Source of the DNA: Callorhinchus milii
Taxonomy: Eukaryota
NCBI RefSeq assembly: GCF_018977255.1
Contig: NW_024704742.1
Location: 129,458,001 to 129,522,000, forward strand
DNA length: 64,000 bases
Direction of reading: 5' to 3'
Part shown: in pieces, positions 13,278 through 62,865 of the stretch
Position numbering within the stretch: position 1 is the first letter of the stretch
How the letters are laid out: each line of letters opens with the position of its first letter
The notes under the pieces: model-generated
Database searches by the model: none
Told to the model about the DNA's origin: nothing
Seen by the model: only the letters and a program-made list of their open reading frames with translations
Position numbers and translations under genes: made by a program

Positions 13278-13339
13278 TCAATCCATTTGCTCCTTGTACA
13301 GCTGTTCCACAACATGCCTTCTCACTTTCAGAGTTGGGC
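13278..13339 (-). CDS. ACSBG2: ACSBG copy A last coding exon ([20 protein letters not shown])
   Basis: TTGCAG| acceptor; homologous to copy B GPTMKTKRPVVHQLYKNQID; TGA at 13280-13278. Confidence 0.88.
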
Positions 13340-16300
13340 CTGCAAACACAACAATGTAAGTTAGAAGTTTCATCCTTTGAATGGCTGCCAGGATCAGGGA
13401 ATTTTGTCGTCTCTGGGCCAGCCAGTTTTTCCTCCACATCTTTTCCATTCATTTCCCATACTTTTTCTCTATTCAATAATTTATTTTAGCTTGATTTATA
13501 TACATCACTTGTATCATGAATTACACACATCAGCCTAGTAGCATGTTTATCTGGGAGTTAGAAGATTGTGGGTTCAGGTCCTACGTTGGGACATGGAACT
13601 CACTTAATGTAGGTTGACACTCTGATACAGTGCTGGTGGCATTATCAGAAGGCATTGGTTCATTAACACTCACTTTAGCAGACAGACATGACTTTATTTA
13701 ATCCAATTCCCATAAAACAGTATGCCTCCATAATACAGTGGAATATTATCTTAGATAGTGAGCTCAAAGTCCTGATCTGGGGCTCAAACCTACAACACAG
13801 AGACCAGAGTGCTACTATATTAGTGAACCTAAAAATAAAACCAGCACAATTCTTTTGATGTGAGATTTTTGAAACACTGTAATAAATAATCCTTGCATTT
13901 GATGTAGCGTCTTATCATGTTGTCAAGACGTCTCAAACCACTTTGCAGCATATACCATTAAGTGGTGCATCTGTGTATTTTGAGGGCGAAGGTGGCAGTT
14001 GACTTGCGCAGAGCAATGCCCCACAAACAAGCATGGAGTGAGTGACCAATTTTATTTCGGGCAAATGTTGGCCAGGACACCAGGAAAAACACCTTTGCCA
14101 AATAGTGTCATTGGACTTTTAGGATCAATCTGAATCCTAAACTTGAGCAGGAAGCCTAGCAGTTAAGGAGGGACCTGAGTCAGGTGGAACAGAGTGAGAA
14201 TTCTGTTAAGGAATTTGGTAAGAGTGGGAATTCTTCAGCAAGAGAGATACCAGACAGCAAGAGAGAACGCTTTCATTCAGCAGACGAGTGGGAAATCTTT
14301 AGGTAGAAACAACCTTACATGTAAGCAGGCAAACACGTCAATTAGCAGTTAATAGGCCAGATGTTGAGGATTAATAAATTTGCAGACCAGTCGAAACTGC
14401 GTGCTGTTGTTTGAGTCCTATGTAAAGGGGAAGATTTGTGAGAGCCTCACTTGAGCCGAGAGCCCAGCAGTGTGGGGAGGGCACTGAGTGAGGTGCAACG
14501 GATTGAGAATTCTGTGAAGGAATTTGGTGAGAGTGGGAATTTGGTGCAGAGGAGGAAGGAGGTGTGTTTGTATAGAAAAGAGTTGACAGGAATAAGACTT
14601 GTATGCAGCTGTTTGTGGGTAGAGAGCCTCACCAGAGACCACTGGAATGCAAGGTTATGAAAACATACTGATTAAGGAAGAAAAGGGAGAGCGAACAAAG
14701 CAACTACTTAAGGAGGAAAAGTAGTCTCAGCAGGGCACATAGGTTAGTGGAAAAGTACCATCACAAGTACACCAATTAGCTGGGTATGAATACAACAGAC
14801 ACACAAAGAAAAAGTTGAGTTCTACAGAGTAAGAACTATAGGTTGCTGAGCTGAGAGCTGGTCATCAGGCCAGACTGCTTATCTGGTAGTATATTTCTGT
14901 TACTTTGTTGAATAAACTGTCTTGATTGTACAACTCTGTGTTCAGACCTTTATTGGTTAATGGCGAGGATCCAATTATGGTAAAGCGAACCTAACAGGTG
15001 CAGGTAAGAATCTCCTTGTAAAGGTCTCCTTGTAAAGGAGAAACAGAACCAGTGAGAGTGCTCACTGTGGGAGCTTTTTGGGGGCCTGTGGGAGATGGGA
15101 GAGTGAAGTCAGGTGCTTCAGTTGGTGTAGACATAGAGGCATCTCGACCAATGATAACATTCCTGAGGAAGTAGTGTTAAGTATTAAGGAGTTTGAGCGA
15201 AAGGTGTCAAAAGGTATAAAAATTACTTGTTTACCTATTTACCCTGAAATTGTTAACGGTAAAATAGATTAAGGGGAAAATAACTAAAAAAGGCAAAGGT
15301 AAAACCTTGTAAATTTAAAAAATATATATAAATAATCCTAAACATTAAGTGGAGTAGAAGCTAGAAAGGGATAATGGCAACACAGATAGTGTGTCACAGC
15401 TGCAGTATGTGGGAATTTGTGGACAGTAAGACTGACCCTGATGGTCCCATCTGTGAGAGGTGCACGTATCTTGAGTCACTCAGGGTTTTTGACCTGGAGT
15501 GCACGTTAGAGATACTCTGACCCATAAGGGAGGGGAGGAATATTTGGACAGTTTACTTCAGAACCAAGCCATACCACATAGAGAGGTTCAGGAATAGGAG
15601 TGTGAGATTAATTGCCAGCAGGGTAGCATTTACTTAGTAGAGGCAGAGAAGGAGAAACTGGTTCTGTCCATCAGGTACAATGTACTTGATACAACAACTT
15701 GGATTTATATAGCGCCCTCTACGCTGGACGGCGTCTCAGAGCGCTTTACAGTTTCTCAGAGCGCTTTACGGACCGAGCCGGGGGGAGGGAAGGGAAGGTG
15801 ACCAAAGGCGCAGTCGAAAAGAAAGGTCTTCAGCAGAGACCTGAAAATGGGAAGGGAGGGAGCGAGACAATGGGAGTGAGGAAGGCAATTCCAAAGCCTC
15901 GGGGCATAGTGGTTGAAGGCACGGCCGCCGAAGGTGGAGCGGAGGACTCGGGGGTTGAGGAGGAGGCCAGACCCAGAGAAACGAAGGCAACGGGTGCTGT
16001 TTTGAGGAGAGAGGAGGTCAGAGAGGTAGGGGGGTGCACAGACTTGCTACATTGGATGAGGGGAAGGAGACCTGAATGCAAACCAAAGTACCATAGAGCA
16101 GAAGGCAGTGCAAAAAGGAAAGGAGCAGAATAGAAATGTTGTAGTTATAGGGGATGAAATAACTAAGGGATCCTCTGCAGTCGAGTTTGAGAGTCCAGGA
16201 GGATGTGTTGTCTTCCTGGTGCCAGGGTAAGGGATATTTCAAAGCAACTGGAAAGGAACTTGGAAATGGAGGGGAAAGAACCAGTTGTCGTTATCCATGC

Positions 16301-17971
16301 TATTACACCAGTAAAAAGGAAAGATTTCGGTAAGGGCGATCAGGTCGTGGAAACACTGTGGGTAGAATTAAGGAACAGCAAAGGAGGTAAGACTCTCTTA
16401 GGAGTAGTCTACAGATCTCCAGAGAGTTGTGATTAGTGGGGAAATGTATAAATACAGAGATCAGGGAAGCATGAAGCAAAAGCAATGTAGTTATAATGGG
16501 AGATTTTAATTTTCACTTAGACTGGGAGAAGGACACCTCAGGCAACAAATTTCTAGAATGTATTCAGGATAGTATTTTGGAACAATATGTTTTAGAACCA
16601 ACAAGGGAACAAGCCATCACAGGATTTGGTGATGAGTAATGAGCCAGAACTAGTTAACAATCTGACAGTAAGGGAACATCTTGCAAATAGTGATCATAAT
16701 ATGATTGAATTTACATTGAATTTGAGAGGGAAAAGGGAGAATCCCAAACCAAGGTTTTGAATTTAAGTAAGGCAAACTTTGATGGGATGAGAAATATGTT
16801 GACCACAGTAAACTGAGCTGAATTGTCAGTGGGTAAACCTGCAGATGAACAATGGGAAGTTTTCAAAAAAGGATTTGATACAATACAGAACAAGTATTGT
16901 ACCCCCAGAATGCAAAAGCTCCAATTGTGTAGTTAAGCAACCATGGCGGACAAAAGAGGTTAGAGACTGTATCAAGCTAAAAGAAAAGGCTTATTCAAAT
17001 GCAAGAAAAGGTGGAAATGCATAGGACTGGGAGAACTACAAAAGGCCACAAGGGATACAAAGAAAATAATAAGAGCAACAAAAAGGAAGTATGAAAAAGA
17101 ACTTGCTTGGGATATTAAAACCAATCGTAAAAGCTTTTATAAATATATTTTAAAAGAAAGAGAATGTCAAGGGGAATGTGGGTCCGTTAAAGACTGATGT
17201 AGGAGAGACTATAACAGAAAATAAGGAAATAGCTGACTTGTTAAATAAATACCTGGCTACTGTATTTACAGTAGAGGGTGAGGACAAAATACCAGACATA
17301 CAGAGGAACCTAAAAATAAGTCAAAGAGAAATACTTAATAAAATTAATATAAATTAAAAAATGGTAATGAAGAAAATAATGAGACTCAAGATAAACAAAT
17401 CTGCAGGATCTGATAGTTTCCACCCTACGGTGTTAAGGGAAATAGGAGAGGATGCATTCGTCATAATTTTCCAAAGCTCACTAGATTCGGGAATTGTGCC
17501 CTTAGATTGGAGAATTGTGGATGTCGCCCATTATTTAAGAAGGGAGGGAGGGAGAAACCAGGAAGCTACAGACCTGTCAGCTTAATGTCAGTTGTAGGGA
17601 AAATACTGGAATCCATCATCAGGGACCGAGTGACTGAACACTTGGACCGGTATGAGCTATCAAAGAGAATTGGCATGGGTTTGTGAAGGGTAGGTGGTGT
17701 CTGACTAATCTAGTTGAATGTTTTGAGGAGGTCACTAAAATAGTGGATAAAAGAGTGTCTATGGATGTCGTTTATATGGGCTTTCCAAAGGCTTTTGATA
17801 AGGTTCCACACAAAAGATTATTAGCGAAAATAGAAGCGCATGGAGTCGGAGGTAACCTTGTGACGTGGCTTGGTAATTCGTTGGGAGGCAGGAAACAAAG
17901 AGTAGGGATAAAGAGAATGTTCTCCGATTGTCAGGACATGACTAGGGGTCTGTACTGGGACCCAGCTATTC

Positions 17972-18002
<31 letters not shown>

Positions 18003-21000
18003 CTTGGATGAAGGAATTGAAAGTCTTATATCCAAGTTTGTAGACAACACTAAGCTAGGAGGCTCAGTAACTTGTGTAGATGGGAGTAGGAAGTTACAAA
18101 AGGACTTAGACAGATTAAGTTAGTGGGCAAAGCTGTGGTAGATGGAGTTCAATGTAGGGAAGTGCGAGATCATCCACTATAGACTGAAAAAAGATAAAGC
18201 AGCATATTTTCTTAATGGGAAGAAATTAAGAACTCTGGAGGAGCAAAGAGATTTGGGTGTCCATATTCACAAATCACTACTTCCCTGGTGCAACAAGTAA
18301 TCAAAAAAGTGGATGGAATGTTGGCTTTTAACTCAAGGAGCCTGGAATACAAAGGGGAAGACATGACGCTTCAGCTGTATAGAGCGTTAGTCAGACCCCA
18401 TCTGGACTATTGCATTCAGTTTTGGGCACCACACCTCAGGAAAGATATATTGGCCCTGGAGAAGGTGCAGCACAGGTTCACTAGAATGTTACCAGGCCTA
18501 AAAGGGTTAAGTTACAAAGAAAGGCCGCATAAACTTAGACCATAAGACGTAAGAGCAGGAGTAGGCCATTTGGCCCCTCGAGCCTGCCCTGCCAACTTGG
18601 ATTGTATTCCCTTGAGTTTAGAAGATTGAGGGGTAATTTGATTGAGGTACTTAAGATGATAAAGGGATTTGATAGGGTAGATACAGATAAGCTATTTCTC
18701 TGGTGGGGAATCCAAAACAAGGGGACATAGTCTTAAAATTAGAACCAGGCCATTTAAGAGTGAAATCAGGAAACATTTTTTCACTCAAAGGGTGGTAGAA
18801 ATCTGGAATTCTCTCCCCCAAAAGGCCATGGATGCTGGATCCATCCACACCTTCAAGAGTGAGGTTGATAGATTTTTGGTAGGTCAGGGTATCAAAGGAT
18901 ATGGGGAGAAAGTAGGAAATTGGAATTGAAAGGATTAGTTGAGGTCAGCCATGAGCTAATTAAATGGCGGAACAGGCTCGAAGGGCTGAATGGCCTATTC
19001 CTGTGTTCCTATGAACCTGACAAATGGGGCCTTGAATTAACATCTCTGACAATGAAACACACGGCCAGCACTGCAATGGGGTATCAGTTTGGACTAAAAG
19101 GGAAATTTATACACGTGGGGAATTATTATCTGGTTTAGATATTTGTCAATGGTTTTTTATGTTTCAGACACCTGGCTGACCCAATTTTTTAAAAAAAATC
19201 TAACAAATCAAAACATAAAAATACCTTACCTAATTCTCCTCCGTAAATTGAGAAATCTCTCTTCAATATGATGAATGTGTTCATTTTGGGAATGTTTGAG
19301 TTGGTCTTTTTGTTCACATTCTCAATGCCCTTTGTTATGGCATTGTAAATTGCAGGGTCTTTTTGGAATAAAATGTTAGACACAGTCGTGGCTTTACTCC
19401 CAATCCGTCGGCAATAGGCAATGGTTTCTCGGGTCAATACGTCAGATGGTTCACCAGTGTTTTCATTGACCTCACACTGGAAGAAAAGCAGTATTAATAA
19501 GGTCTCCAAACAAACATAGCAATAATTCTTACATTTAGTATGAATGCCTTTCATTTCAGGAGGATTTCCCAAAGCGCTTCACAAGATAGACTGTAAAGTT
19601 CAGGGACTGTATATGTTGCGGATGAACCAGCAGCCAGTCTGTGCACAGGAATGTCCCACAAACAGCCATGAAGCGAATGACCAATTTTATTTGGGGGATT
19701 ATTGGCCGAGACACTGGGAGAAACCCCCCTTTTTGAACAGTGCCATGGATTCTTTATCGTCCATCTGAACAGATAGAAAGGGCATGGGTTTAATGGCTCA
19801 TCAAAGGACGGCATCTCTGACAATGCAGTGCACCCCCCATTGCTGCCAAAAAAAAGTGTGAACTAAGCACTGAATATCTGAATGTTGAAATGATGGGGCC
19901 AAGGTGAAAGCTAAGCGTTACACATTCTCACATTATATTTTATACAGGCGCTTACCTTCAGTGTCAGAAGTATAATGAGATCATTCGCAATGGCAATGAG
20001 TACTGCATGTCTGACGATTGTTAACTCATTTTTAATAGCATCCTCAATGGGTAAGGGGTTAATGTGCATTCCATTTCCCAGGATGACAAATTCTAGAGCA
20101 AAACAGTTTTTAACGATCAATTAGATTTTTGGTATTAACAACAGGAATGGTCCATTGCACCAAGAGTATAGAGTCAAGTGTGGAAGTAAAGTATCAAATG
20201 TTAAAATACGATTGCATTTTATAAAATGTGACAATAGGGAATCACTCGTTCGGTCTAATACTTTTTTTGGTCAGCCGGGTGTTTGACACATGCGGAATCC
20301 CATTACCGTGCTTAAGAGCACCCAAACCAAACACAGTTCCATGCATCCCACCTAGACATAGAAATTCTTGTGTATTTTAAGCGATCTGAGATGCACAAAT
20401 TGAGTTCTCAAGCCTTGGCTCTTGTGAACGTGTGCCTAATACTCTCTGCAATTAAGTAAGCAGGATGTGTTTTGGGAAAGAGTGCACATTCCATTCCGAT
20501 TCACAGGAATTTCCATGTATAGGTGGGATGCATGTAACTCTCAATTTGGCTTGGATGCTCTTAAGCATGGCGATGAGTTTCCGAATGGGTCAGACAACCG
20601 GCTGACTGACCCCAAAAATTTAATATAGTAGTGTGTTCATTTTATATATCAAAAAGACTCTTTCCTACCTCAATGCATTTATTTAGTTTAAAAAGCAAGG
20701 AAACTGGAATATGACATTACCTTTTATTTTGCCAGTTAGAAACAGGAAATCATCGTTACTGAGGTATCCCAAGTCTCCAGTGTGCATCCAGCCTTCCGCA
20801 TCTATAGTCTGCTCAGTCTGTTCTGGCATATTCAGGTATCCCATGAAAATATTCCTTCCCCATAAACAGATTTCTCCATCCAACTTCTCATCCGTTTTGT
20901 AAATTTTTATCTTGCAACCCTCCATCACCTTGCCACAGCTTGGAACAAATTATAAACATAAGAGTTTGGTGGGGAAAACAATAATAATAATAATTCGTGT

Positions 21001-24000
21001 GGAGTGACTGTGCATTTTGTGGGCGAAATTGAAGCTGGGTGAATAACACAATTTATGGAAAGTCCTTCGGGTTTATTTTATCACCAAGTGAAAGGCTTGT
21101 CTTATCTGTGTAGTTAATAAGTGACTATTGTTATTAGTTAATAACCATTTTATTATTATTAGTTAATAATTGACACTTGACTCCACCACCACTGTTTGGC
21201 ACAAACCTTAAAGGCTGGCACTGATGTGAGATTGAAGTTGTGTGTGGACCAGTGCTCTCACTCAAGCCATAAATTGGCATAATGAAGATGCAGAGGCTAT
21301 GGAAGAAATCCAGAGTACGTTTAGAAATGGGTGCCGCTCCAACAAAATTCCTTGTACATTTATCCAAACCCATTTCTTCATGAACCTTCTTAAACACCAG
21401 AGCATTCGCCACGTTGTAGCAAAGGGGCACTGATGCCTTCCTGAGACAGAAGAAATAAAAGTGAAACACTTTGGCCTCCAGTAAGTAATAAAACAATGAG
21501 TAATTTGATTTGATTCCCTACAAATAGCACATTCTTGCTGTCCATCCAGTCATTTTTTGTTTGAGGTGGGAAAGGTGGGCAATATATATATATATATATA
21601 CACATATTTTGTGAAGCTCTTTGAGACATCTCAATGACATGATAAGGCTCTATATCAAATGCAAGGATTATTATAAAAACAAAAGTCGTTGTGAACATGC
21701 AGCAGGTCAGGAAGCCTCTATGGAGAGAAGAAAATGAGTTAGCGTTTCAGGTCAATGACCTTTTGTCAGAACTCAAGGACTATTATAGGAGGGGAGAGGC
21801 AAAAGAACAACAACAAGATTACATTTGTATAGCGCCTTTCACGTCAGGAGGACATCCCCAGGCACTGGACAGTGTACAGCATTTCAGACCCGAGCTGGGG
21901 TCAGGGAGGGAGAAGGGAGGGGAAGGGGTGTGGCTGATGGCATGGTCGAAGAGGAGAGTCTTGAGGCGGGACTTAAAGGAAGGTAAGTAGGGGACGAGGC
22001 AGAGTGATTGGGGGTTGGAATTCCAGAGTTGGAGGCAGAGTGGCTGAAGGCTCTCCCGCCAACGGTGGGGCTGGTGGGTCGGGGGACATGGAACAGGCCA
22101 GAGCTGGTTGAGCGGAGGGATCAGGCGGGTTGATAGGGGGTTAAGAGGTCGCAGAGGTAGGGTGGGGCGAGATCATGGAGGGTTTTGTAGGTGAGGACCA
22201 GGATCTTGAACTGGATCCTCTGAAAGATAGGGAGCCAGTGGAGTCAGGTGAGAATGGGGGAGATGGGGTCACGGAGTTTGGTGCGGGAGAGGACATGGGC
22301 TGCCGAGTTCTGGATTATCTGCAGCCTGTGGAGGGAGGAGTTGGGAAGGCCAAAAAGCAAGGTGTTTGCATAGTCGAGCCTGGAGGTGATGAAGGCATGA
22401 ACAAGAGTTTCAGCGGCCTGAGGGGTGAGGTAGTGGCGGAGTTGGGTGATGTTATGGAGGTGAGGGAAGGCAGAGCGGGTCATGGCTCAGATGTGGGAAA
22501 GAAAAGACAGTTGAGGGTTGAACAAGACACCTGGGTTCCTGACTGGCTTGGTGAGTTGTAGTGTACAACCATGGAGGTTGATGCTGCCAGAGCCTGAGGT
22601 GCTGAGGCGCTGGCGTGAGCCAATCCGGAGGGCCTCAGTCTTGTTCACATTTAACTGTAGGAAGTTTGCCCTCATCCAGGACTTGATGTCCGACAGGCAG
22701 TCTGTCAGGACAGCAGTGGTCCTGGAGTTGAGGGTGGAGGCAGAAAGATAGAGTTGGGTGTCATCCACATACATATGGAAGTTGACCCCATGTCTGCGGA
22801 TGACGTGACCAAGAGGGGAGCATATAGATATTAAAGAGGAGAGGGCCAAGAACAGAACCCTGGGGGACGCCAGACGTGACAGTCCGGGGGCTGGAGGAGA
22901 AACCGTTAGAGGCAACAAAGTGGAGATGGTGAGAGGGATAGGAATCGAACCAGGCAAGGGCAGGTTCGTGAAGATTAAGTAAAGAGGAGAGGTGGTGTAT
23001 GAGGATGGAGTGGTCAACAGTGTCGAAGGCGGCAGAGAGGTCGAGCAGGACAAGGAGGCAGAGGGAGCCCTGATCACAGATATCATCAGTGACTTTGACC
23101 AGGGCTGTTTCCGTGCTATGGGCAGCGTGGAAGCCAGATTGGAGGGGTTTAAAGAGGGAATGGCAAGAAAGAAAGGAGCGGAGCTGGGATGCGACGACTC
23201 GTTCCAGGACCTTGGAGAGGAATGGGAGGTTAGAGATGGGGCGGTAGCTGGAGAGAAGGGATGGATCCAGGGAAGGTTTTTTTCAAGATGGGGTTGATGA
23301 TGGCTGTTTTTAGGGGGGTGGGAACTGAACCGGTGGACAAGAAGAGATTGATAACGTCCTCTCAAGGGAAATGTAACAATCCTTGCATTTGATACAGTGC
23401 TTTATTACTTCATCAAGATGTCCCAAAGCACTTCACAGGATTTACTGTTAAGTGATGTGACTGGGTATTTTGTGGGCAAATCAGGGGTCTAAAAGGCCCC
23501 AGTTATGATTGACGCCTTTACCTCGTGGCTGTGCCTCTCTTCCTGTCGGTCTCTGCTATGAGGCTGTTTAGGGCGGCTCCCCCCCACCCACCCCGATCAC
23601 TTAATCTGGCCTTGTTCCCCTAAATGCTGGGAAGGACTCATTTAGCCTCCCTTGGCAACTCTGACTGGACCCGCAAACGTAGCCACAACAACAACACAGG
23701 CCGAGATTCAAACCAACAAGCTCCCTCTGCAGCTCTTTCCAGTTCACCACCGAGCCTGTCTCCTCATATATAATAATAATAACAATAATATAATAATCCT
23801 TGCATTTGATATAGCACCTTATGTTGTTGAGATGTCTCAAAGCATCACAAAATATACTGTAAATGGAATTAGCTGTATATTTTATGGGAGAAACACGGCA
23901 GCAAATTGCATACAGCAGTGTCCCACAAACAGTTATGGATTGAGTGACCGGATTTTTTTGGTTTGTTTTCTAAGGGATTATGCCTCTCCGGAAAGCAATC

Positions 24001-27000
24001 CTCCAATTGACTAACAACCGGGTTCCTACTTACTGTTAGGTAAGCAGGCGTGTGAAGTAAGGAAACTTGCCTAAGGTTCCTGGCCCTGCCCAATAATCGG
24101 ACCTGAGTCGTCTCGCTTGCGAGGCGAGTACTCTAACCAATATAATAGACTGCATTCTGTACATTTTGCAAAGGTCTTTGAAGTGTCTATCTTACGTTAC
24201 GTGAAAGGAGTTCTGTAAATACAAGTTATGATGCTTTTTCTTCTCCAGGCAGTGGCCACAAATTTGCCAGGGTAGCTTGCTGGTGTTTTTATTTTTTCCC
24301 TGATCCGAGAACAAAGCAAAATTGCAAAGCAAAGTTTTACGCATTCCTGGAGCAGAGAAAAAAATGTTGCCCTTTTGACCTACCCATTAATTTTGTTTTT
24401 ACTCGCCATCCTTCCCACTTTCCTTGCCCAAAGGCCTATGACTACTTTCAGAGGTGATTGATGGGCCTGATTATGTTCCACCTTTCTTCGCATTTTCTCC
24501 CAGATATGAGGGACCCCCTCAAAAACTGTAGGCTCCACTTCCCTCATTTCGTCCATCAAGGTACTCTGAAAATAGAAATCAAAATCCTTCCAACGATGTG
24601 TAGCTTGAACTCACAGCCTTCTTTCTGATGCAAAGGCGAGAGTGCTATCAACTGAGCTAGGCTGACACTTAAAGATAATGAACACATAAGTCTTACCCTT
24701 TGCAGTCACGTGCTGCATGGCACTATAATTATAATAATCCTTGCACTTATATAACACCTTATCAAATCTTCGAGACGTCTCAAAGCGCTTCACAGAATAT
24801 ACTGTAAAGTGAATTGACTGTATAGCTTATGGGCAAAATGCACCCACAACTGAGCATGGGATGATTAATGAGGCTGTTAGTTCACTCACTGGATGGGACC
24901 GAACCATAGAGCTTTTCTCTGATCCACTGACTATGGCATTGCTTAGCTCAATATAGCATTTGTTCCATCTCACAGGGTTGTCTTGATGACTCACCAGGTC
25001 ACCAGCAGTGAATCAGATGTAATTGGACCAAATACACAAAGGAGTCCAGAGGATTCCTGGGCTTATTCTAAACCACAAATGTAAAGCGTAAAGGGTTAGA
25101 CAGTAGCTAAAAGTCCCAGTTAATAATAACAAATGGATACTAGATGTTTTCATACAAATATGAATGGACCCTATTCAAAGAGGAGAAAATACTGTGCACT
25201 CAAATCACCTACCAAATTAGCAAAATACGTAAGGCCTCCAAAAGCCATCTGAATCCATAAATCCATAATCTGTACTGCAACATGACTCAAGGGCATATAA
25301 CTGACCAGTCTTTCCTGACTATTGTTATGGCCAAAATCCATATTTATTCCTGATGTATTGGCATTCCATGTTATCTAGAAAAAGAAATGTAAATAGTCTC
25401 AGTCTATCTACTCAGAGCAGCACTTTGAGAACCAGTTCTGTGTAAAGCTGTTGTTTTGCTGTAGTCGTTGTCAAGAAATTGCAGTGTCAATAAAATTATT
25501 TTAAAACGGAATTAGATTTATACTTGTAAGGGAAGGTTATTAAAGGTACGGGAATGAGCAGGAGAATGGGACTACATTAAATGGCTCATGTGGTGAAATA
25601 CCAATGCTACCTTGTATTAATTGTAATAATATTCTATATTCTATAAAGAGTAGTGACTGTACAATTATGGGCAAACAGAGCTGTCAATATACGCACAGCA
25701 ATGTCCCACAGGCATGAAGTTAATAACCAATTTTCTATCAGGGAGTTTGATAGCCAGGACACCAGTAGGAACTTCTTTCTTTTTCCGAATGGTGTTGTGG
25801 GATCGTTAAAGTCTATCTGAACAGGTAAACAGGACCTTGGTTTAACCTCTTGTCCGAAGGATGGCACCTCCAATAATGTAGCATATCCATAGCACTGCAC
25901 TAGTGTGTTAACTCAAAGCTTCAACATGAGGCTTGAACCCACAACCTTCTGACTCAGAGGCCAAAGAGTGAGCCAATTATTCATCACAGTGTAATCCAAG
26001 TGTAACACAGTAATAATAATCATAATCCTTGCATTTGATATAGCACCTTATCAAGTCTTCTAGCTGTCTTAAAGCACTTCACAGAATATACTGTAAAGAG
26101 CCTTTCACATCGGGAGGACGTGCCATTTTTTAAAAAAATGGATAACACATTTGCCACCTTCACTTCTCTGGCACAATTCCTTTCTGCACTGAGTTCTTAA
26201 ATATATATACCATTGCCTCAGCCATCTCCTCCCCAGTTTCTTTAAGGATCCTTTTACCCATGGAATATACATTCAATCCACTTTGCAGTACATTCTGTGA
26301 AGTGCTTTGAGATGTCTCGAAGACAGGATAAGGCGCTGTATGAAATGCAAGGATTATTATTATTATTGCTAGTTGAATCAGATGACCTGTTTCCATGGTG
26401 TACAGTCTGTGTAAATCTATGTAAAACTTACATTATCATGACTGATCATTACTCCTTTAGGAGCTCCTGTACTGCCTGATGTGTATGCTATCAGACAACA
26501 CTGATTAGCATACTGAGAGTCAATAATGTCATCCAGCTGCTTATCTGCTATATCGTTCGACAATTCCATCAACTGCTTCCACTTGAAATGAAGACAAGTA
26601 AAATGTTTATATCTGTTCCTTGAACAATTAACTTATAATAAATAATTATTGAGATGTCTCAAAGCGCTTCACAGCTTTCTTCACAGCACTTTTCACAGAG
26701 AATATACTGTAAAGTGAATTGACTGTATGTTTTGTGGGCAAAACACAGCAGCCAATTGAGCACAGCAGTGGCCCACAAACAGTCGCGGATTGACTGACCA
26801 AATTATTATTATTTTTTTAAGGGATTATTACCCACCAATCGACTAACAATAGGGTTCTTACTTATGCTAGGTAAACAGAGGTGTAGGGAGTAAGGAAACT
26901 TGGCCAAGATTTCGCCCTTCCCGGAAATCAAACCCGGGTCCTCTCATTTGCGAGGCAAGTGCTCTAACCTATACTCTTAATAATAATTTTAATAATCCTT

Positions 27001-30000
27001 AAATTTTATAGCAGCCTTGTCATGTTGTCAAGACATCTTAATGTGCTTCATGGGAACTGTGTGTTTTGTAGGTGAAAGCAGGAGCCAGTTCATTCACAGC
27101 AATGTCCCACAAAGAGCCATGAAGTGAATGACCAATATTATTGGGAGGATTGGTGGGCAGAACACTGGGAGGAATTCCCTTCAAATGACTAGCGGGAACA
27201 CAAATGCCAGCCGAAGTCAGTAAGGAACACTGCATTTTTCGCTCCTGTACCCGAGCATTGAGCAACCTGCTTGACCTCCCCTGCCCTATCTACCTATCTA
27301 TCCCACCATTACCCACCAATCCAGAGGAATATGTTCAAGATCCTCATCCTCACTTTTAAAGCCTTCCATGGTGTTGCTCCACCCTACCTCTGCAGCCATC
27401 TGAAATCCTACCATACTGCCCAATTCATCGCTCGATAGACACTGCTTCAAGTCCCCCGACCCAACCCTCCTACCATCAACAGTCGGGCTTTCAGTCTTTC
27501 TGCCCTCTCTGGAACACCATCCTGGAGTCTCTCCGACTTACTGCTTCCCTCACCTTGTTTATAATAATAATAATCCTTGCATTTTGATATAGCGCTTTTC
27601 ACGTCTTCTAGACGTCCCAAAGCGCTTCACAGAATATACTGTAGAGTGAATTGACTGTATATTTGTGGGTGAACGCAGCAGCGTTCTTTTGGAGGGATTA
27701 TTATTAGGCGTGTGGAGTAAGGAAACTTTCCCAAGGTTTCGCCCTGCCTGGAATTGAACTCAGATCTCTCACTTGCAAAGCAAGTGCTCTAACTACTGAG
27801 CTACAGGACTATTGTCTCAAGACATTCCTCATTTTAGTCATCTTTTATCCTCCCACCCCCAGCTTGGGTGCCAACCCATGACTGTTAAGCACCTTGGGAC
27901 GTCCTCCCAACGTGAAAAACATTATCTAAAAGTAAAGTATATATAAAGTAGTGTTGCATTGAACAAAATTGTCTCAAGGGCACTGACTGTATAAATCTTC
28001 GGATCAGTTGCTTTCTTCCTACCCTTGAGCTGAACAATCGCTTTGAGATGGGGCAATTCATTTTTAACCTAGAGATAAAAATAGCAGGTTAGTCCATTCT
28101 TTTCCTTTCTCCTTACCATTTCTTCCCCTTCTAGAATTCTCATGAAAGCATTTAACTCTGTTCCTGTTCCAAAACACATAGTCAAAAAAAAACCTTAACT
28201 GCATATCCTGTGAAGCGCTGTGAGACGTCTCGACGACATGATAAAGTGCTGTATCATTTGCAAAGATTATTATTGTTATTATTATTGTTATTATTATTAT
28301 CATCATCATCACTGGCACCATATCCAGATGCACTGCACCAAAGATAATAAAAACAATCATAATAATAATCCTTGCATTTGATATAGCACCTTATCACATC
28401 TTAGAGATGTCTCAAAGCGCTTCACAGAATATACTGTAAAGTGAGTTGATTGTATATTCTGTGGGTGAAGAATCCTTAAAGAAACTAGGGAGGAGATGGC
28501 TGGGGCAATGATATATATATATTTAAGAACTCAATGGAGAAAGGAATTGTGGCAGAGAAGTGGAGGTGGCAAATGTGGGAGGATGTTTTTTTTTAAAAAA
28601 GGGATGTCCTCCCGATGTGAAAGACGCTTTAAAAATGTAATTTGTTGTTGTTGTAGATCCAATCCAGGAAGGCAGTTTATCATCAATGGGAAGGAAGATA
28701 TTGGAGTCCATAGTAAATGATGAAACAATAATAATCCTTGCATTTGATATAATACTTTATCATGTTTTTCAGATGTCTCAAAGTGCTTCAGAGAATATAT
28801 TTTAAGTGAATTAACTGTATATTTTATGGGTGAAATGTGACAGCCAATTACGCACAGCAGTGTCTCAAAAACAGCCATGGATTGAGTGACCAAATTATTA
28901 TTAGTGGTTATTACACCGGAGAAGCGATCTGACAATCGACAGTAAACAGAGGCGGGTGAGTAAGGAAACTTGCCTAAGGTCTCATCCTGAATGCGAATTG
29001 AACCCTGGTGCTCTCGCTTGCGAAGCAAGTGCTCTAACCATTACTCTACAGGATTCCATTGTACAGTACGAAGTTACACAGATGTATAAAGTCACTTTTA
29101 TTTAAAAACGAGACCCAAACTAAAATCAAAAAGAAATCATACCTTGAGGACTTTTTCTGCTAATTTGCGATTCTCCACCACTAGAATATTTGCCTTTGTA
29201 TTCAAGGCCAAATGTTGATATGTTTGAGGAGAACTTGTCATGTAAATCCCAACAGATAAGCCACTGCAGTGAAGTGAAAACAAGATTTAGGTAAAATTAT
29301 AACTCTAATTATAAATGAAATCGAAAAGGACCTGGGGGTCCTAATTGACAATAACTTGAAGCTATCACAATACTCGGTAGCAATGAGTAAAGCAAACCAG
29401 ATGTTGGGATGTATGATAAGGTCAATATTGAGCCGAAATAGTAGGGTAATCCTGCCACTTTATAAATCCAACGTACTTGGAATAGTGTGTACAGTTCTGG
29501 TCACCAAGACACTCCAGCAATCCACACCGATTCTTAGTAATACCCTGTCTTTGTTGTGTAGGGTGTCCTTCATACTTCTGCTTAAGTTTCGGGGGTGGTG
29601 GGGGTGAGGTGGAGGGGGTACCAGGAAGGCTTATTGGGGCCAGGACGCTCACCTCATTTAAATAAAACAGCTTGATGCTGTGATGGAAGGACAATAAGGG
29701 TCATTTTGGAAGGATGAGATCAAATGGGCCGAAGGGTCTTCTTCATCATCTTAACCTTTTTTGTGATCAGCAATGATGTGAGTGATCAATGAATATGCAA
29801 ACTTTCAGACACACAGTGGCACTTGCATTACATTTAACACAGCAACATTTAAAGGTGATTTAATCTTTCCTCATAACCAAAGGCCCTCATCCCTGGCACC
29901 TTGTAAAATGTCATCTGCATTCCCTCCGAGGGCTTTACATCATTGCTAAAGTTAGATGCCCAAAACTGAATACATTTCTCCAGGTTCTAACCAATTATTT

Positions 30001-33000
30001 GTAGAAACGTAGCTTTGCTTTTGTATCTAGGCCCCATTTATCAAACCCACAATACTACTAACTTTTTTCATAACCCTGTCCACTTGTGCAGCCAATTCTA
30101 TCTGGGAGATTGTTGGCCAGAGAAACTTCCTTTTTTATTGCCAGAGGATCTTAATGTCCACCTAAACAGATAGACAGGATTTTATTTTTATTTTTATTTT
30201 TAACATCTCATTCACCTCTGACAAAGCCTCACTCCTCCACGGTACCATACTGGATTATTAGCCTAGTCAGACAAAGCCCCAGTGTAGAGCTTGAAGCCAC
30301 AACCTTATGAGTCGGAAATGAGAGCTACCAACTGAGCAAGACTAACACTCTGCTAAACAGCCTCTGTGTAGCATCCTGAAAAAGGAATTCAAATGACCTT
30401 CTATTGTGTGGTTGATTTGTACCATTCACTCCGAGTAGGAAATAGGAACATTCATTCCCTCGAATCTGTTGCACAATTCTATTAGATCATGACTGATCTG
30501 TACCTCAACTTCATTTACCTGCCTTTGCTCCATATCCCTTGATACCCTGATCTAACAAAATCTATCCACCTCAGTCTTGACAAATTTGAATAGATTCAGC
30601 ATCCAAAGTCTGTTGGAGGAGAGAATTCCAGATTTCCACTGCCCTTTGTGTGAAAATGTGCTTTCTGATTTCACTCCTAAATGGTCTAGCTCTAATTTTA
30701 AGATATGTCACCTTGTTCTGGATTCCCCCACCTCCCTGAGGAAATAGTTTCCCTGCATCTAACCTACTGAACCCCTTTATCACTTTAAACACCTCAATCA
30801 GATCACTGCTTAACCTGCTAAACTCAAGGGAATACAAGCCAAGTTTATGCAACCTATCCTCATTATTTAATCCTGGTATCATTCTGGGGAATCTGCGCTG
30901 TACCCTCTCCAAGGCCAATATATTAATAATAAACCTTGCCTTATCAAATCATTAAGACATCTCAAAGCGCTTCATAGAGTACATTGTAAAGTGAATTGCC
31001 TATATATTTGGGGGACGAAAAAAATATTTTTCTTGAAGTGAGAAAACCCGATCAATGCGCAAATGCATAAAATCTGGACGCTTTCGTTATTCCATTACCA
31101 CCTAACCCTTTATAGAAAGAATGGTTTACTACAGATCATTACTTTAGTATGCAAAGACTACTCAAAAGAGAAGCGTTACCCTGCCATAATTGCTCCTATG
31201 TTGGCAAAGAACCACTCTGGGCAGTTGTATGCCATAATACCAACTCCATGGTAGCGGTCAAGTCCAAGCTGTAAACAGAATAAGACAGACATTTTACAAC
31301 AACAATAAAATTACATTTGTAGAGTGCCTTTCACATCGGGAGGACATCCCAAGGCACTGGATCGTCAGAGATTTAGACCCGAGCAGGGGGTTGGGATCAG
31401 GGAGAGTGGAGGGGAGGGAGGGTAGGAGGATGACCGAAGGTGTGGTCGAAAAGCAGGGTCTTGAGATGTGTCTTGAATGAGGCAACGGAGGGAGTGAGGC
31501 AAAGGGAATGTGGGATGGAGTTCCAAAGGGTGGGGGCAGAAAGACTGAAGGCCCAGTCGCCGATAGTGAGGTGGCCCAAGCAGGGAATGGGGAGAAGGCC
31601 AGAGCCTGGTGAGCAGAGAGAACGGACAGGTCTAAATGGAGTTAGCAGGTCACAGAGGTAGGGAAGCACTAGGCCCTGGAGCACAAACTTCTTTTTCTCA
31701 AAAAATAGCCAAAAAAATAAAATCTATTATGAAAGCTTAACGCAAGTGTTGAACTTGTTGAACAACATGTTGAATAACATGGTCTAAAAATATGTGTTTG
31801 AATTCTAAGGAGCCAGACTGACCGTGGGAGTCAGATTTGATCTATGATTCATTTCACTGAAGACTCATCTGAATATCTTTCATATATTTATGAAAGGGGT
31901 AGAACCATACCATTCCGCTTCAAAGACAAACTTTATTTCAAAACTTTTAAAATGTCACTTTAACTTGGACTTGCCTTCAAAAAGCCCTTTGCTGTCATCC
32001 TGCATTTCTCGTAGTAAATAGAGTAGGAAATCCTGTACAAATGTTCATCGCGCTTGTAAGCTAAAGCGATATGGTTGTGATATTTCTCCACTGAGTACTT
32101 GAACATTTGGTGAACAGTGAGAGGATCCTCAGAACCAAGGCCCGATTCCGCCATTCGGATCTTCACTGAATCATTTACTTTTGAAACCCAAAGCTGCTTT
32201 GCAGGGGTAATTCGAATGGAGGATGATACAACAAATGGAATCACTGGAACCATTAAATCTAAAGCAAACCAGGGCACTTCTATCAGTTTATTATTAACAA
32301 TGATAATAATAATAATCCTTGCATTTGATAAAGCGCTTTTCACTTCAGGGTATCTCAAAGCGCTTCATGGGATTTACTGTAAAATATAACGATTGTGTGT
32401 TTTGTAGGCAAACCCGAAAGCCAATTTGATACAGCAACAGCCCACAAACGGCCATGAAATGAATGATCAATTTTATCTGGGGAACTGTTGGCCAGGACAC
32501 CAGGAGAAACTCCTTTCTCTCTTCGAATAGTATCGTGAGATCTTTAATGTCCACCTGCATAGGCAGACAGGACCTCAGTTTAACATCTCATCTAAAGGAC
32601 GGCACCTCAAACAATGCAGCACACCACAGCATTGCAATAAAGTGTCATCTTATACTGTGAGTTCAAAATCCCAAACTGGGGCTGGAACCCACAACCTTTT
32701 GACTCAGGGGCAAGAGTGCTACCTACAACAACAACAACAACAAGATTTCATTTGTAGAGCGCCTTTCATGTCAGAAGGACATCCCAAGGCGCTGGACAGT
32801 TGGGTCAGGACCCGAGCAGGGGGGAAATGGTCAGGGTGAGGGGAGGGAAGGGAGGGAGCGAGGAGGGGGTAGAGAGTCGAGAGAGGAGCTGAAGGCACGG
32901 TCAAAGAGAAAGGTCTTGAGACCGGCCTTCAAGGAGGAAAGGGAGGAAGCAAGGCAAAGGCACTGGGGGATGGAGTTCTAGAGCCTCGGGGCTGATCATA

Positions 33001-36000: not shown

Positions 36001-37979
36001 GTTCATTGTTACCTGACCTGGTAAAACGCACCACAAATTCCTCTGGGGGGGGGGAAATCAGATCTGTGATATAATAGAGATTTGCTGGACCACAACCGGA
36101 AAAGTATAGTGTGTGTTTGTGTGGACACGTTTGTGTATAAGAGAGACAAAGAAAGATATGGTTGAATTGTGGCTACAAGTATGCAATCTTTATCATCCCC
36201 CTGTACATGCAGACAGGATCTTGAGTTAACGTCTAATCCAAATAAAACCTCTGAAAAAGCAGAATCTCCCCAGGGATGCACTGCAAGGTCTTATAATAAT
36301 CCTTGCATTTGATACAGTGCCTTATCATGTCATTGGGACATCTCAAAGCACTTCACAGAATATACTTTAAAATGGATTGACTGTATATCTTGTGGACGAA
36401 ATGCGTCAACCAATTGTGCACAGCAGTGTCTCACAAACACTCATGGATTGAGTGACTAAAGTATTATAGTTTTTTGAAGGGTTATTATCCCCGGAAAGCA
36501 ATCAACTAACATCCGAGTTCCTACTTACTGCTAGATAAACAGAGGCGTGTGGAGTAAGGAAACCTGCCTAAGGTTTCGCCATGCCTAGGAATTGAACCCG
36601 TGTCCTCTTGCTTGCGAGGCGAGCGCTCTAACCAATACGCTACAGGACTCCACAAAGTCTTCCTAGACTATGAACAATAACATTTACAAGGTTGATTGTT
36701 CAAACTTGCTAAACTTACTTGATTCAGCAGCTGAGCTTGAGCCTTCTGACTCAATATTCCTTAAATCAAAATTGTTGTGCTGTGTAAAAACGAATGTATT
36801 CATTTGGGTTAAGCTCATGTCACTGCTTTTCTTCATTGCATCAGTGTTTGAGGCCTCGCGTTCAACTGAATTCTCAGAAACCAACATTTGAGTCACGGTG
36901 TTAGTTAAAGACTTCGTCAGTTTCTTTACAAATCCAATTTCTGGAGGCTCCTCATTTCCAACCTTGAGTAAGCAAGATATCCCAACATCCCCTCCTGCGT
37001 CGTTGGTCTGTTGGCTGAGACTGAGAAGGATCTGACCCCCAGATACAACAGAAAGGTCTTCACCAGGTCCATCTGTTTGCAAACCAGAAGCTGTCTCGAG
37101 ACTGCAGGCAGAGAAATTGATTTCCATCAGAGTAATGCAAATAAAACAACATCAACTTGCATTTATATGGCGCCCTCCATGCGGGGCCGTATCTTGGAGT
37201 GCTTTATAATAATCCTTGCATTTGATACAGCGCTTTATCACATCGCTGATACCCCACATGAAACAGTGTAGGACAGTTTCCCCCAACCCTTTAGGTCACT
37301 TGATAAACTCACTTCCTGGAGTGAAACAGAGCCATTCAGAGATGAAAGGTCAGTCTTCCATTGGCCTGTGCTGAGATACTGACATCAATCAGGGTAGCTG
37401 TGAGGAGCTCACAACTGACCTCTGTACCCAAGGCTAGATAGTAGATACAGCTTCTTATTCTCTATCCAGAGACCCCTCCTGGAGAGTCGGCATCGATTGA
37501 CGACAGGACTCAGCAACTAACATTCGTTACCTTATATTCATAGATGATAAATTGCCACTTGAGTATGATATTGAAAGGTGGTTATCCCTGGGAAAATGTG
37601 TTCTAGCAAAAGCAAACTCCTCCAGATGAGTAAAAAAAGGGAAACATTTATTTAAAATATAAATTGGCCGCAAATGTGCTTCTGTCCAATTTTAAAATTG
37701 AACATTCAGATCACGTGCCATGTTCTGAAACGTTAAACTTCTACTTAATGTGAAACCAAAATCAAACCACTCAAATGCAATTTTCATATAGTATTTTTAC
37801 TTATTTTTAAATGTGAATTCATTGAATTGCAAACTGATATGCCACATTTACCTAATCGATTTTTAGAACAAAACAACACAAATTTCCACAAACCTTTCTG
37901 AAAATTGATCACTCCCAGAGAACTGTTTGGTAACTTTGTTCGTGCTATCTTCTCCAGTACGGTCAATATTCACAGACAT
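13278..37979 (-). CDS. ACSBG2: ACSBG2-like (bubblegum) long-chain fatty acid-CoA ligase, divergent tandem copy A; 14 coding exons, ~811 aa
   Basis: Exons 37979-37894, 37101-36719, 32258-31975, 31268-31180, 29263-29143, 28068-27988, 26581-26432, 25374-25213, 24565-24384, 21440-21207, 20938-20721, 20092-19956, 19476-19230, 13339-13278 sum to 2436 nt with no internal stop. Motifs [54 protein letters not shown]. The first two exons rest on splice sites and phase only. Confidence 0.88.
14565..14996 (+). mobile_element. Solo LTR (432 bp) with 4-bp target-site duplication
   Basis: TGTT...AACA termini, GGTG duplicated at 14561-14564 and 14997-15000, AATAAA at 14911; interrupts the CR1 5'UTR. Confidence 0.78.
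15690..16045 (-). mobile_element. L2-clade 3' fragment nested in CR1 ORF1
   Basis: Closely similar to 41580-41930 and 63962-64000; (CAA)n tail on the plus strand. Confidence 0.82.
19230..19476 (-). CDS. ACSBG2: ACSBG copy A exon ([10 protein letters not shown]...DFSIYGGEL)
   Basis: TTCCAG| acceptor, G|GTAAGG donor, 247 nt. Confidence 0.93.
19956..20092 (-). CDS. ACSBG2: ACSBG copy A exon ([21 protein letters not shown]...LLTLK)
   Basis: CTCTAG| acceptor, AAG|GTAAGC donor, 137 nt versus 140 in copy B. Confidence 0.9.
20269..20606. mobile_element. Foldback/MITE-like element with ~105-bp terminal inverted repeats
   Basis: Arms 20270-20372 and 20502-20606 are imperfect reverse complements (GTCAGCCGG..GCTTAAGAGCA..ATGCATCCCACCTA..GAAATT). 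Related copies at ~19100-19182, ~35180-35535 and ~58820-59117. Confidence 0.8.
20721..20938 (-). CDS. ACSBG2: ACSBG copy A exon ([16 protein letters not shown]...HTGDLG...TGKIK)
   Basis: TCCAAG| acceptor, G|GTAATG donor, 218 nt. Confidence 0.94.
21207..21440 (-). CDS. ACSBG2: ACSBG copy A exon (GAAPIS...[11 protein letters not shown])
   Basis: TCTCAG| acceptor, AG|GTTTGT donor, 234 nt. Confidence 0.93.
21807..23300 (-). mobile_element. 5'-truncated L2-clade LINE
   Basis: [34 protein letters not shown]; (CAA)n tail. Confidence 0.9.
24384..24565 (-). CDS. ACSBG2: ACSBG copy A exon ([25 protein letters not shown]...)
   Basis: TTTCAG| acceptor, GG|GTAGGT donor, 182 nt. Confidence 0.9.
25213..25374 (-). 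CDS. ACSBG2: ACSBG copy A exon (ITWNAN...[11 protein letters not shown]...TYFANL)
   Basis: TTCTAG| acceptor; best phase-0 donor is TTG|GTAGGT, a few codons earlier than the usual QPDALK end. Confidence 0.85.
26432..26581 (-). CDS. ACSBG2: ACSBG copy A exon with AMP-binding P-loop ([18 protein letters not shown])
   Basis: TTCAAG| acceptor, AAT|GTAAGT donor, 150 nt. Confidence 0.94.
27988..28068 (-). CDS. ACSBG2: ACSBG copy A exon ([13 protein letters not shown]...KIYT)
   Basis: CTCTAG| acceptor, ACA|GTCAGT donor, 81 nt. Confidence 0.9.
29143..29263 (-). CDS. ACSBG2: ACSBG copy A exon ([12 protein letters not shown]...ANILVVEN...VLK)
   Basis: CTGCAG| acceptor, AAG|GTATGA donor, 121 nt. Confidence 0.92.
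30440..30918 (-). mobile_element. CR1 3' fragment
   Basis: [16 protein letters not shown]...[12 protein letters not shown]. Confidence 0.85.
31180..31268 (-). CDS. ACSBG2: ACSBG copy A exon ([30 protein letters not shown])
   Basis: TTACAG| acceptor, GG|GTAACG donor, 89 nt. Confidence 0.92.
31296..31683 (-). mobile_element. L2-clade 3' fragment
   Basis: PYLCDLL...[14 protein letters not shown]...[10 protein letters not shown]. Confidence 0.85.
31975..32258 (-). CDS. ACSBG2: ACSBG copy A exon (...[14 protein letters not shown]...TAKGFLK), GC donor
   Basis: CTTTAG| acceptor; donor AAG|GCAAGT. Confidence 0.88.
34055..34350 (-). mobile_element. tRNA-headed SINE (other long copies ~23775-24140, 27561-27810, 33010-33365, 36292-36652, 45114-45394)
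   Basis: Reverse complement of the 11213-11532 family. Confidence 0.85.
36719..37101 (-). CDS. ACSBG2: ACSBG copy A exon, Ser/Glu-rich N-terminal extension
   Basis: CCTGCAG| acceptor, A|GTAAGT donor, 383 nt open, phases 2 and 1 bridge the flanking exons. Confidence 0.65.
37894..37979 (-). CDS. ACSBG2: ACSBG copy A putative first coding exon ([12 protein letters not shown]...)
   Basis: Acceptor TTTTACAG| before 37996, GCCAAGATG context, donor AG|GTTTGT in phase 2, matching the next exon. Confidence 0.6.
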
Positions 37980-51278: not shown

Positions 51279-51329
51279 GTTTAACTGTGGTGGACTATAC
51301 TTTACTATGTTTTTACCTCCCCCCCCCCC

Positions 51330-56412: not shown

Positions 56413-56489
56413 TTAACTTATATAAAGAGCATCGATTTGATTTTTGTACAACTGGTGCACAACCGGCCTTTTCGTTTTCATTGTTGGAC
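56413..56489 (-). CDS. ACSBG2: ACSBG copy B last coding exon (GPTMKTKRPVVHQLYKNQIDALYIS*)
   Basis: TTGCAG| acceptor, TAA at 56415-56413. Confidence 0.93.
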
Positions 56490-62400: not shown

Positions 62401-62865
62401 AGGTCATTATCTACACAATTCCCACTGGAAATCTTTTCATGTGCATTTCTAGTTTCAAAAAAGAGAGCTTTTAATATTATTCAAATAGAGCTGAATACCT
62501 TTAGACCAATTCAGTTTTGTCCAATAATTATACCTAAGAGCGAAAGCAGTCACAACTTAAGAAGTAAATTCATCACCATTATCTACGTGACTGAGTAATG
62601 CTTAACTGAATGAGCAATACAATTCACAAACCTTGTAGTACGGAAGGCTCCTGCATAGGAAATTGTGTGTGGCCCACTAGTCTCGCTCATGCCGTAAAGC
62701 TCATAGATTGGAATATGGAGGCTAAGGAAGAATTCCAGTGTTTCTTTAGTGATGGGTGCTGCTCCAGTGAAACACTTCCCACAGTGGTTCAAACCCAGTG
62801 CTTTACGAACTTTCTTAAACACCAGGCTGTTTGCCAGTGAGTACCCACAGGGCATTACGTCATTT
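56413..62865 (-). CDS. ACSBG2: ACSBG2-like acyl-CoA synthetase, canonical copy B, last 5 coding exons; 5' part beyond window
   Basis: Exons 62865-62632, 59350-59133, 58696-58557, 57843-57597, 56489-56413. Canonical ELYGMSETSGPHT, GWLHSGDLG, TGRIKELIITAGGENIPP, SNAQKI, GGELGPTMK. Confidence 0.93.
57597..57843 (-). CDS. ACSBG2: ACSBG copy B exon (CMVNEQTGAP...DFSITGGEL)
   Basis: TTCTAG| acceptor, G|GTAAGC donor, 247 nt. Confidence 0.95.
58557..58696 (-). CDS. ACSBG2: ACSBG copy B exon (ELIITAGGENIPP...LLSLK)
   Basis: TTTCAG| acceptor, AAG|GTAAGC donor, 140 nt. Confidence 0.95.
59133..59350 (-). CDS. ACSBG2: ACSBG copy B exon (CGKQLLG...GFLYITGRIK)
   Basis: TACCAG| acceptor, G|GTAACT donor, 218 nt. 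Confidence 0.95.
59812..60556 (-). mobile_element. L2-clade 3' fragment
   Basis: [27 protein letters not shown]. Confidence 0.87.
60659..61038 (+). pseudogene. tRNA-Ala(TGC)-derived pseudogene split by a SINE
   Basis: 5' half GGGAATGTAGCTCAGTGGTAGAGCACATGCTTTGTAT (60659-60695); 3' half GTATGTTCTATCCCCAGCATCTCCA (to 61038); TGTAT duplicated around the SINE; T5 at 61043-61047. Confidence 0.8.
60696..61006 (-). mobile_element. Full-length young tRNA-headed SINE
   Basis: Close reverse-complement match to 11213-11532; flanked by TGTAT direct repeats. Confidence 0.9.
61370..62180 (+). mobile_element. Internally deleted L2-clade fragment
   Basis: LAPLKYR..SPWYN..FYSKVILEA linker region followed by a 3' tail. 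Confidence 0.75.
62632..62865 (-). CDS. ACSBG2: ACSBG copy B exon (GAAPITKETLEFF...YGMSETSGPHT)
   Basis: TTGTAG| acceptor, AG|GTTTGT donor, 234 nt. Confidence 0.95.

Follow-up and report, generated by a model that had tools for sequence, protein, structure and literature searches.

Changes near the predicted coenzyme A contacts in one copy of the tandem ACSBG3 pair from Callorhinchus milii, the elephant shark

Acyl-CoA synthetases of the ACSBG3 type occur in cartilaginous and ray-finned fishes, the coelacanth and amphibians, and GBA2 and RGP1 have been given as neighbours of their genes (10.1101/288530). In Callorhinchus milii, the elephant shark, ACSBG1 is absent and ACSBG3 has undergone a lineage-specific duplication (Lopes-Marques et al., 10.1101/288530), i.e. 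the duplication as such is already published; a copy named ACSBG3a, which may be either of the two genes described below, is highly expressed in ovary and testis, and the other copy is without detectable expression. The present analysis deals with this pair in a stretch of 64,000 nucleotides of C. milii DNA (contig NW_024704742.1, positions 129,458,001 to 129,522,000, forward strand), hereafter the window, to which all coordinates without a contig name refer. Copy A lies on the minus strand from 37979 to 13278, and copy B, a canonical ACSBG3, is represented by its last five exons (56413..62865, minus strand) and continues past the window to about C1:129536828. Copy A shares the ACSBG3 lineage, the GBA2/RGP1 locus and the exon structure of copy B; it differs in having Lys for the Arg of motif II and a rewritten predicted face for coenzyme A (CoA). 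This pattern of change is undescribed in the main text of the published study, the supplements of which may list the protein, and C. milii is the only species in which it has been observed to date.

Mammalian ACSBG2b and human ACSBG2 likewise have the motif II Arg replaced, by Asn and His, respectively, and ACSBG2b, too, arose by tandem duplication within ACSBG and sits on a long branch. However, copy A arose independently in another paralogue, and whereas ACSBG2b degrades the AMP-binding motif I, copy A retains motif I and alters the CoA side. In ANL ligases, the acid is adenylated in one conformation, then the C-terminal domain rotates and the A8 motif together with two loops of this domain grips CoA (excerpts of PMC8388817). 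The 4-chlorobenzoate:CoA ligase (CBL), ACSM2A and 4CL2, which have been solved with CoA and served as the source for residue mapping, share the fold and the motifs A3 to A10 with copy A; their substrates differ, and the 40 listed fold matches have identities of 16-21%. The fatty acyl-AMP ligases (FAAL enzymes) keep adenylation, and their canonical CoA pocket is disabled: bulky residues plug it together with an additional helix, and a second pocket takes holo-ACP (Patil et al., excerpts of PMC8460268). The likeness of copy A to these enzymes would consist in adenylation without a functional CoA pocket, both of which are predictions for copy A. In contrast to a FAAL, copy A descends from a CoA ligase, has neither the FAAL insertion nor the entry helix, and its entry loop is four residues shorter. 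FAAL enzymes are without the Arg/Lys patch for the CoA phosphates, and in copy A the net charge falls at residues 686-706 but not at 762-780.

The changes in copy A are unevenly distributed over the protein. In an alignment of 118 proteins, 242 core columns have the same residue in 97% or more of the 116 vertebrate ACSBG proteins besides copies A and B; copy A departs from the family at 66 of these and copy B at 14, and in a nearly identical count the median relative departs at one. The departures in copy A are clustered (p 0.001). Motifs A3 to A7 and A10 together have 5 of 57 invariant columns altered, all conservatively, compared with 61 of 185 outside these motifs (p 1.7e-4) and 7 of 15 in A8 (p 0.002). 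Copy A retains the P-loop (motif I), the A5 Glu, the A6 Gly, the A7 Asp and the A10 Lys, as well as four of the five residues that are invariant in 374 ANL enzymes; the fifth, an Arg, has become Lys. At this motif II position, 661, all 117 aligned relatives have Arg. The initial annotation of the stretch, made from its letters alone, had called this Arg near-invariant. The position is occupied by Arg in 137 of 143 pattern-matching proteins, and the six with Lys all represent copy A, a pattern beyond chance. Copy A also contains the adenylation motifs and the substitutions quoted there, four of each. The hinge, which had been described as rewritten, is indeed altered in A8, but the description goes too far, as the hinge Lys-Glu and Gly671, which in A8 corresponds to Gly409 of CBL and lines the pantetheine tunnel, are retained; the Lys773 of the C-terminal domain is retained, too. 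Further differences had not been mentioned, namely deletions of four residues in exon 8 and one residue in exon 12, a C-terminus five residues shorter than that of copy B, and an altered loop after the GIY motif. Relative to the ACSBG family the core contains deletions only and no insertion. New basic residues (S691R, E479R) appear near predicted CoA segments. Furthermore, T546V, E568P and A432V lie near the predicted acyl pocket, which suggests that the acid substrate of copy A may differ, too.

The relation of these changes to CoA binding was analyzed with eight CoA anchors from described enzymes: Arg87, Gly409 and Asn411 of CBL and Ser404 of FadD13 (excerpts of PMC6122825), Trp440, Phe473 and Arg475 of CBL (excerpts of PMC10455477), and the entry loop 287-293 of ACSM2A (excerpts of PMC8460268). 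The anchors were mapped by aligning the sequence with 4CL, luciferase and FadD8 in HMMER, the entry loop by spacing; for Phe473/Arg475 a motif pattern was used that fits the predicted secondary structure. Among invariant columns within two residues of an anchor, 21 of 29 are altered near CoA anchors; the figures are 7 of 44 for the surroundings of 12 ATP anchors (p 1.6e-6) and 38 of 169 for the remaining columns (p 3e-7), with p 1.5e-4 by permutation. Five controls showed far fewer changes at the same 29 columns, i.e. two in copy B, four in P0060, one in P0083, two in P0012 and none in the ACSBG copy on contig C21. All five groups of CoA segments contribute to the signal (2/5, 6/8, 6/8, 3/3 and 4/5), which persists when the two least secure anchor groups (11/16, p 1.3e-4) or A8 (15/21, p 5e-6) are omitted. 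At the ATP anchors the family residue is retained in 11 of 12 cases. Hence, a canonical ligase is distinguished from copy A by the motif II Arg and by the family residues at the CoA segments.

The altered segments are found in several exons of the minus-strand gene. Exon 5 (29143..29263) encodes the loop placed at Arg87 of CBL together with the following helix, with 7 of 12 invariant columns altered. Exon 8 (25213..25374), in which the A4 His is retained, has 162 nt compared with 174 nt in copy B, which corresponds to the loss of four residues, at the exon end, from the predicted CoA-entry loop. Exon 12 (19956..20092) contains the A8 hairpin, altered at 6 of 9 invariant columns around the retained Gly671, and the loop mapped to CBL Trp440, altered at all eight and shortened by one residue. 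The net charge of this loop (residues 686-706) is -1 in copy A and +2 in the family. Exon 13 (19230..19476) combines the segment mapped to CBL Phe473/Arg475 (4 of 6 altered) with the retained first part of the A10 loop. The adenylation motifs are encoded in exon 7 (26432..26581; the P-loop, motif I/A3, with a single Thr-to-Ser change), exon 10 (21207..21440; GAAP and A5 retained, with T546V and E568P adjoining the predicted acyl pocket), exon 11 (20721..20938; A6 and A7 retained, Arg661Lys in motif II) and exon 14 (13278..13339; A10 lysine retained, stop codon). Exon 9 (24384..24565) carries the variant VPHIWEK (R472H, V473I). In CBL, changes of Trp440 and Phe473 impair the second step and spare the first (excerpts of PMC10455477); Asn411 of CBL binds in the thioester form only, and the FadD13 exchange S404A raises the Km for CoA 6-fold (excerpts of PMC6122825). 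Collectively, the pattern is real, concerns a known gene pair and consists of a statistically strong remodelling of the putative CoA face, as mapped by distant homology.

The reading that we tentatively favour, at slightly less than an even chance, is that copy A activates fatty acids via acyl-AMP but no longer uses CoA. According to this proposal, the binding of ATP and fatty acid and the formation of acyl-AMP would persist despite Arg661Lys, the five altered segments would together represent the CoA face, as judged from distantly related enzymes of bacteria, plants and humans, and the docking site for CoA would be lost, with the acyl group being passed to another acceptor. Because the tunnel glycine of A8 is retained and a blocking insertion is absent, the C-terminal domain would keep its rotation, and a nucleophile without the adenosine-bisphosphate head of CoA could enter. 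Small amines, alcohols or thiols would be candidate acceptors, as would pantetheine bound to a protein, but any choice among them is a guess. The more far-reaching scenario, in which rewriting of the CoA face alone turned a vertebrate long-chain synthetase into a CoA-independent, FAAL-like acyl-adenylate ligase serving another acceptor in chimaera gonads, has a chance of well below even.

Several points weigh against the proposed loss of CoA use. Conservation at the ATP site does not significantly exceed that of the background (7/44 versus 38/169, p 0.41), and another comparison of this site gave 5/57 versus 27/129 (p 0.057). The entry-loop and Phe473/Arg475 anchors were placed after the changes had been seen, and at the latter segment (residues 762-780) the net charge of +3 equals the family median of +3. 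No structure of an ACSBG or close ACSL enzyme was found, the best sequence matches being luciferases and 4CL; since even the closest folds have the low identity given above, the anchors are approximate. CoA sites are described as poorly conserved across the superfamily (excerpts of PMC8388817), and deletion of the entry helix of a FAAL restores CoA use (excerpts of PMC8460268), therefore, a shorter loop need not block CoA. The motif II Arg is invariant in the 374 ANL enzymes, and its loss in the exchange R400A of CBL impairs both half-reactions (excerpts of PMC6122825). No orthologue of copy A was found among the 120 best of 1457 full-length matches (7994 candidates scored) or among 41 short matches (1026 candidates); none of the matches is labelled as a holocephalan other than C. 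milii, hence the absence of an orthologue is not shown. Two of the 41 short matches, 38-42% identical, score nearer to copy A than to copy B without being orthologues. Finally, the dN/dS of copy A is high, 0.74 with a clock, and unity cannot be rejected when no clock is assumed (p 0.15).

One alternative is that copy A is still an acyl-CoA ligase, in which CoA binding is weaker or rearranged, maybe with a shifted optimum of chain length or pH, and which evolves fast under relaxed constraint like gonad-restricted ACSBG duplicates. We regard this as possible, at well below an even chance. It would agree with the retained A8 Gly, hinge Lys-Glu and Lys773, with the basic residues gained nearby, and with the variation of CoA pockets among active ligases (excerpts of PMC8388817 and PMC10455477). 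Human ACSBG2 is active with His at the motif II position, mammalian ACSBG2a and ACSBG2b sit on long branches, and one elephant-shark ACSBG3 copy is highly expressed in ovary and testis (10.1101/288530). However, all five mapped CoA segments are altered together, at columns near-fixed in the 116 other vertebrate ACSBG proteins, and the charge of the Trp440-type loop is reversed. Because of the active human enzyme with His and the role of the Arg in both half-reactions, the Arg-to-Lys exchange alone is the weakest evidence for a loss of CoA use; the stronger signal sits in the four other segments, as far as these can be placed from sequence.

A second alternative, which appears less probable, regards copy A as an inactive or nearly inactive binder of ATP and fatty acid that acts as scaffold, sensor or partner of copy B. 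The loss of the invariant Arg and the alteration of 27% of the invariant columns, and of 21% even outside the named motifs, would fit such a role, and mammalian ACSBG2b provides the precedent of a degenerate ACSBG duplicate retained in gonads (10.1101/288530). But ACSBG2b has lost the motif I that copy A retains, and the A10 lysine loop, which is needed for adenylation (excerpts of PMC6122825), is altered at 1 of 12 invariant columns in copy A compared with 22 of 57 in its domain.

The selection analysis covered 624 codons, over which copies A and B are 55% identical, and gave a dN of 0.255 on the branch of A and 0.114 on that of B. The pooled dN/dS of 0.54 is below 1 (p 2e-7). Under a clock with 0.34 synonymous substitutions on each branch, dN/dS is 0.33 for copy B, and the value for copy A is below 1 (p 0.016); without a clock dS is not divisible between the two copies, because the copy on contig C21, the sole nucleotide outgroup, is saturated. 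When neutral drift was simulated in 300 runs, the frame stayed free of stops in 17% of them at 0.02 substitutions per site, in 2.7% at 0.05 and in none at 0.14, whereas the branch of copy A amounts to about 0.34. Most changes in copy A therefore arose when the gene still had to encode a complete protein, although a very recent loss of function is conceivable. Copy A is an intact, fast-evolving paralogue and no long-dead pseudogene. That it is instead a decaying duplicate with a recent loss of function, in which a stop or frameshift is yet to come, is the least probable explanation, in spite of the dN/dS without a clock, the conflicting public gene models and the lack of detectable expression of one elephant-shark ACSBG3 copy, which may be A or B (10.1101/288530), because stop-free survival permits a neutral time of only about 0.05 substitutions per site, too little for 66 changes at invariant columns, the changes are clustered, the hinge junction is correctly spliced in run X1, and the sole exonic variant listed in run X2 is synonymous.

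The initial annotation had interpreted copy A as a neofunctionalised paralogue with changed acceptor, substrate or regulation, or as an adenylate-only or pseudo-enzyme. The intact, fast-evolving gene and the location of its changes on the CoA half-reaction fit "changed acceptor" or "adenylate-only"; neofunctionalisation as such is not shown, given the high dN/dS that becomes indistinguishable from 1 without a clock. The link to ether-lipid metabolism raised there is still speculation.

The sequence reads confirm the altered letters. In run X2 all 30 bins of 19900-21500 are covered with zero differences from the assembly, and only one exonic variant is listed in 12900-32500, a synonymous one in exon 9. 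Run X1 contains a contig of 294 nt (depth 6.2) that joins 20721 to 20092 across a GT-AG intron with 0 mismatches. An assembly error behind the changes in copy A was therefore rejected, because both runs carry identical letters. With X1 presumed to be RNA, at least one sample shows transcription and splicing of the altered hinge; this presumption is a guess, as no run is recorded as RNA and X1 also has intronic contigs, and the tissues of the runs are given as codes. The wide read layout was swamped by repeats, hence the splice support refers to the join of exons 11 and 12, not to those of 8-9 or 13-14. Exon 10 and the 3' part of exon 12 are uncovered in X1, exon cover is absent in 19900-21500 in runs X6 and X7, and no exon pieces are listed for X8; these gaps were not used as evidence.

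The assignment to ACSBG3 relies on tree, synteny and gene structure, by which copies A and B are tandem ACSBG3 copies. The genome contains three ACSBG matches, copy A, copy B and the gene on contig C21. In a quick tree of 44 rows, in which ACSBG1 and invertebrate rows were left out and copy A was flagged as long branch, A pairs with B (SH-aLRT 90), and this pair is joined with three elasmobranch (shark and ray) proteins at 99, while the C21 gene falls inside the ACSBG2 clade with support 100. The end branches measure 1.3 for A and 0.39 for B at a median of 0.097; the branch of copy B is thus itself long, four times the median. Copy A hence belongs to the known ACSBG3 lineage, and no characterised lineage with the same substitutions was found among the 120 best of 1457 full-length or the 41 short matches. 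In the Atlas, ACSBG clusters alone turned up. Regarding synteny, GBA2 and RGP1 were sought and HINT2 and SPAG8 left out. PF04685, which we take to be the GBA2 domain, has seven matches on contig C1 at 129.612-129.620 Mb, about 76 kb beyond copy B; for Rgp1 a single weak match below the cut-off (E 5.6e-4) lies at 129.679 Mb, about 142 kb beyond copy B. The exon phases of A and B match, and their noncoding DNA is alignable in intron 1 (75%) and in the last-exon/3' region (68%). No study of the copy A motifs turned up in the literature, where most subscription journals were outside coverage.

The two ACSBG exon sets were located on the minus strand by a six-frame motif scan, after which the splice sites were read. 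Copy A consists of 14 coding exons with 2436 nt and 811 residues without internal stops, separated by 13 usable introns (12 GT-AG and one GC-AG); all deletions are in-frame, and stops, frameshifts or lost splice sites do not occur in any of the 14 exons. The open frame of about 811 codons with splice sites that had been claimed earlier was thereby confirmed. The start codon is in exon 1 (37894..37979), whose ATG and phase-2 donor are also kept in copy B, and exon 2 (36719..37101) encodes an N-terminal extension in a frame resembling the shark ACSBG3 N-terminus; both exons are based on conservation, not on reads. The ANL core begins in exon 3 (31975..32258), with a GC donor at 31975 where copy B has GT. 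Exons 4 (31180..31268) and 6 (27988..28068) complete the gene, and AATAAA/ATTAAA hexamers occur near its 3' end at about 13217, 12945 and 12910. Exon 13 has identical counterparts in database proteins carrying the label Callorhinchus milii, among them XP_007895402.1, "ACSBG2-like". The six public models of copy A begin in exon 3 and conflict at exons 8, 9 and 14. Within 24233-24565, the NCBI model XP_007895402.1 has an unrelated stretch of 35 residues in place of exon 9, while in further models exon 8 is lengthened or exon 14 is missing. Public annotation is unreliable for this gene.

The 12 core exons of copy B form an open frame of 662 residues with the reference motifs present, the VPRVWEK exon lying just outside the window. 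Its predicted fold reached a pLDDT of 70, with residues 437-514 below 50, and no residue-level contacts were obtained. Exon 2 of copy B (about C1:129534900) has a 1-base gap relative to copy A; the N-terminal stretch resembling shark ACSBG3 is divided over two frames in copy B and lies in one frame in copy A; start and donor of exon 1 are conserved despite this split, which may reflect the use of a later start or an assembly error. Between the two copies, and not part of either gene, lies an intact LINE ORF2 of 980 codons (48387..51329, minus strand) with endonuclease and reverse transcriptase, presumably of CR1 type. Tail to tail with copy A are the 3' exons of a HECT ubiquitin-ligase gene (1576..8589, plus strand) with an RCC1-type exon upstream, which we infer to be HERC1-like. 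Since the ACSBG gene of amphioxus has a HERC1-like neighbour as well (10.1101/288530), the linkage of HECT and ACSBG genes may be ancient.

A CoA-independent acyl-AMP ligase would, if true, be unusual for a vertebrate enzyme. The ACSBG enzymes of animals are regarded as suppliers of acyl-CoA pools. Such a ligase would show how acceptor specificity shifts in ANL enzymes and would hint at a new acylated product in holocephalans. Even if copy A turns out to be a weak acyl-CoA ligase, the CoA face of ACSBG enzymes would be mapped by the natural differences between copies A and B.

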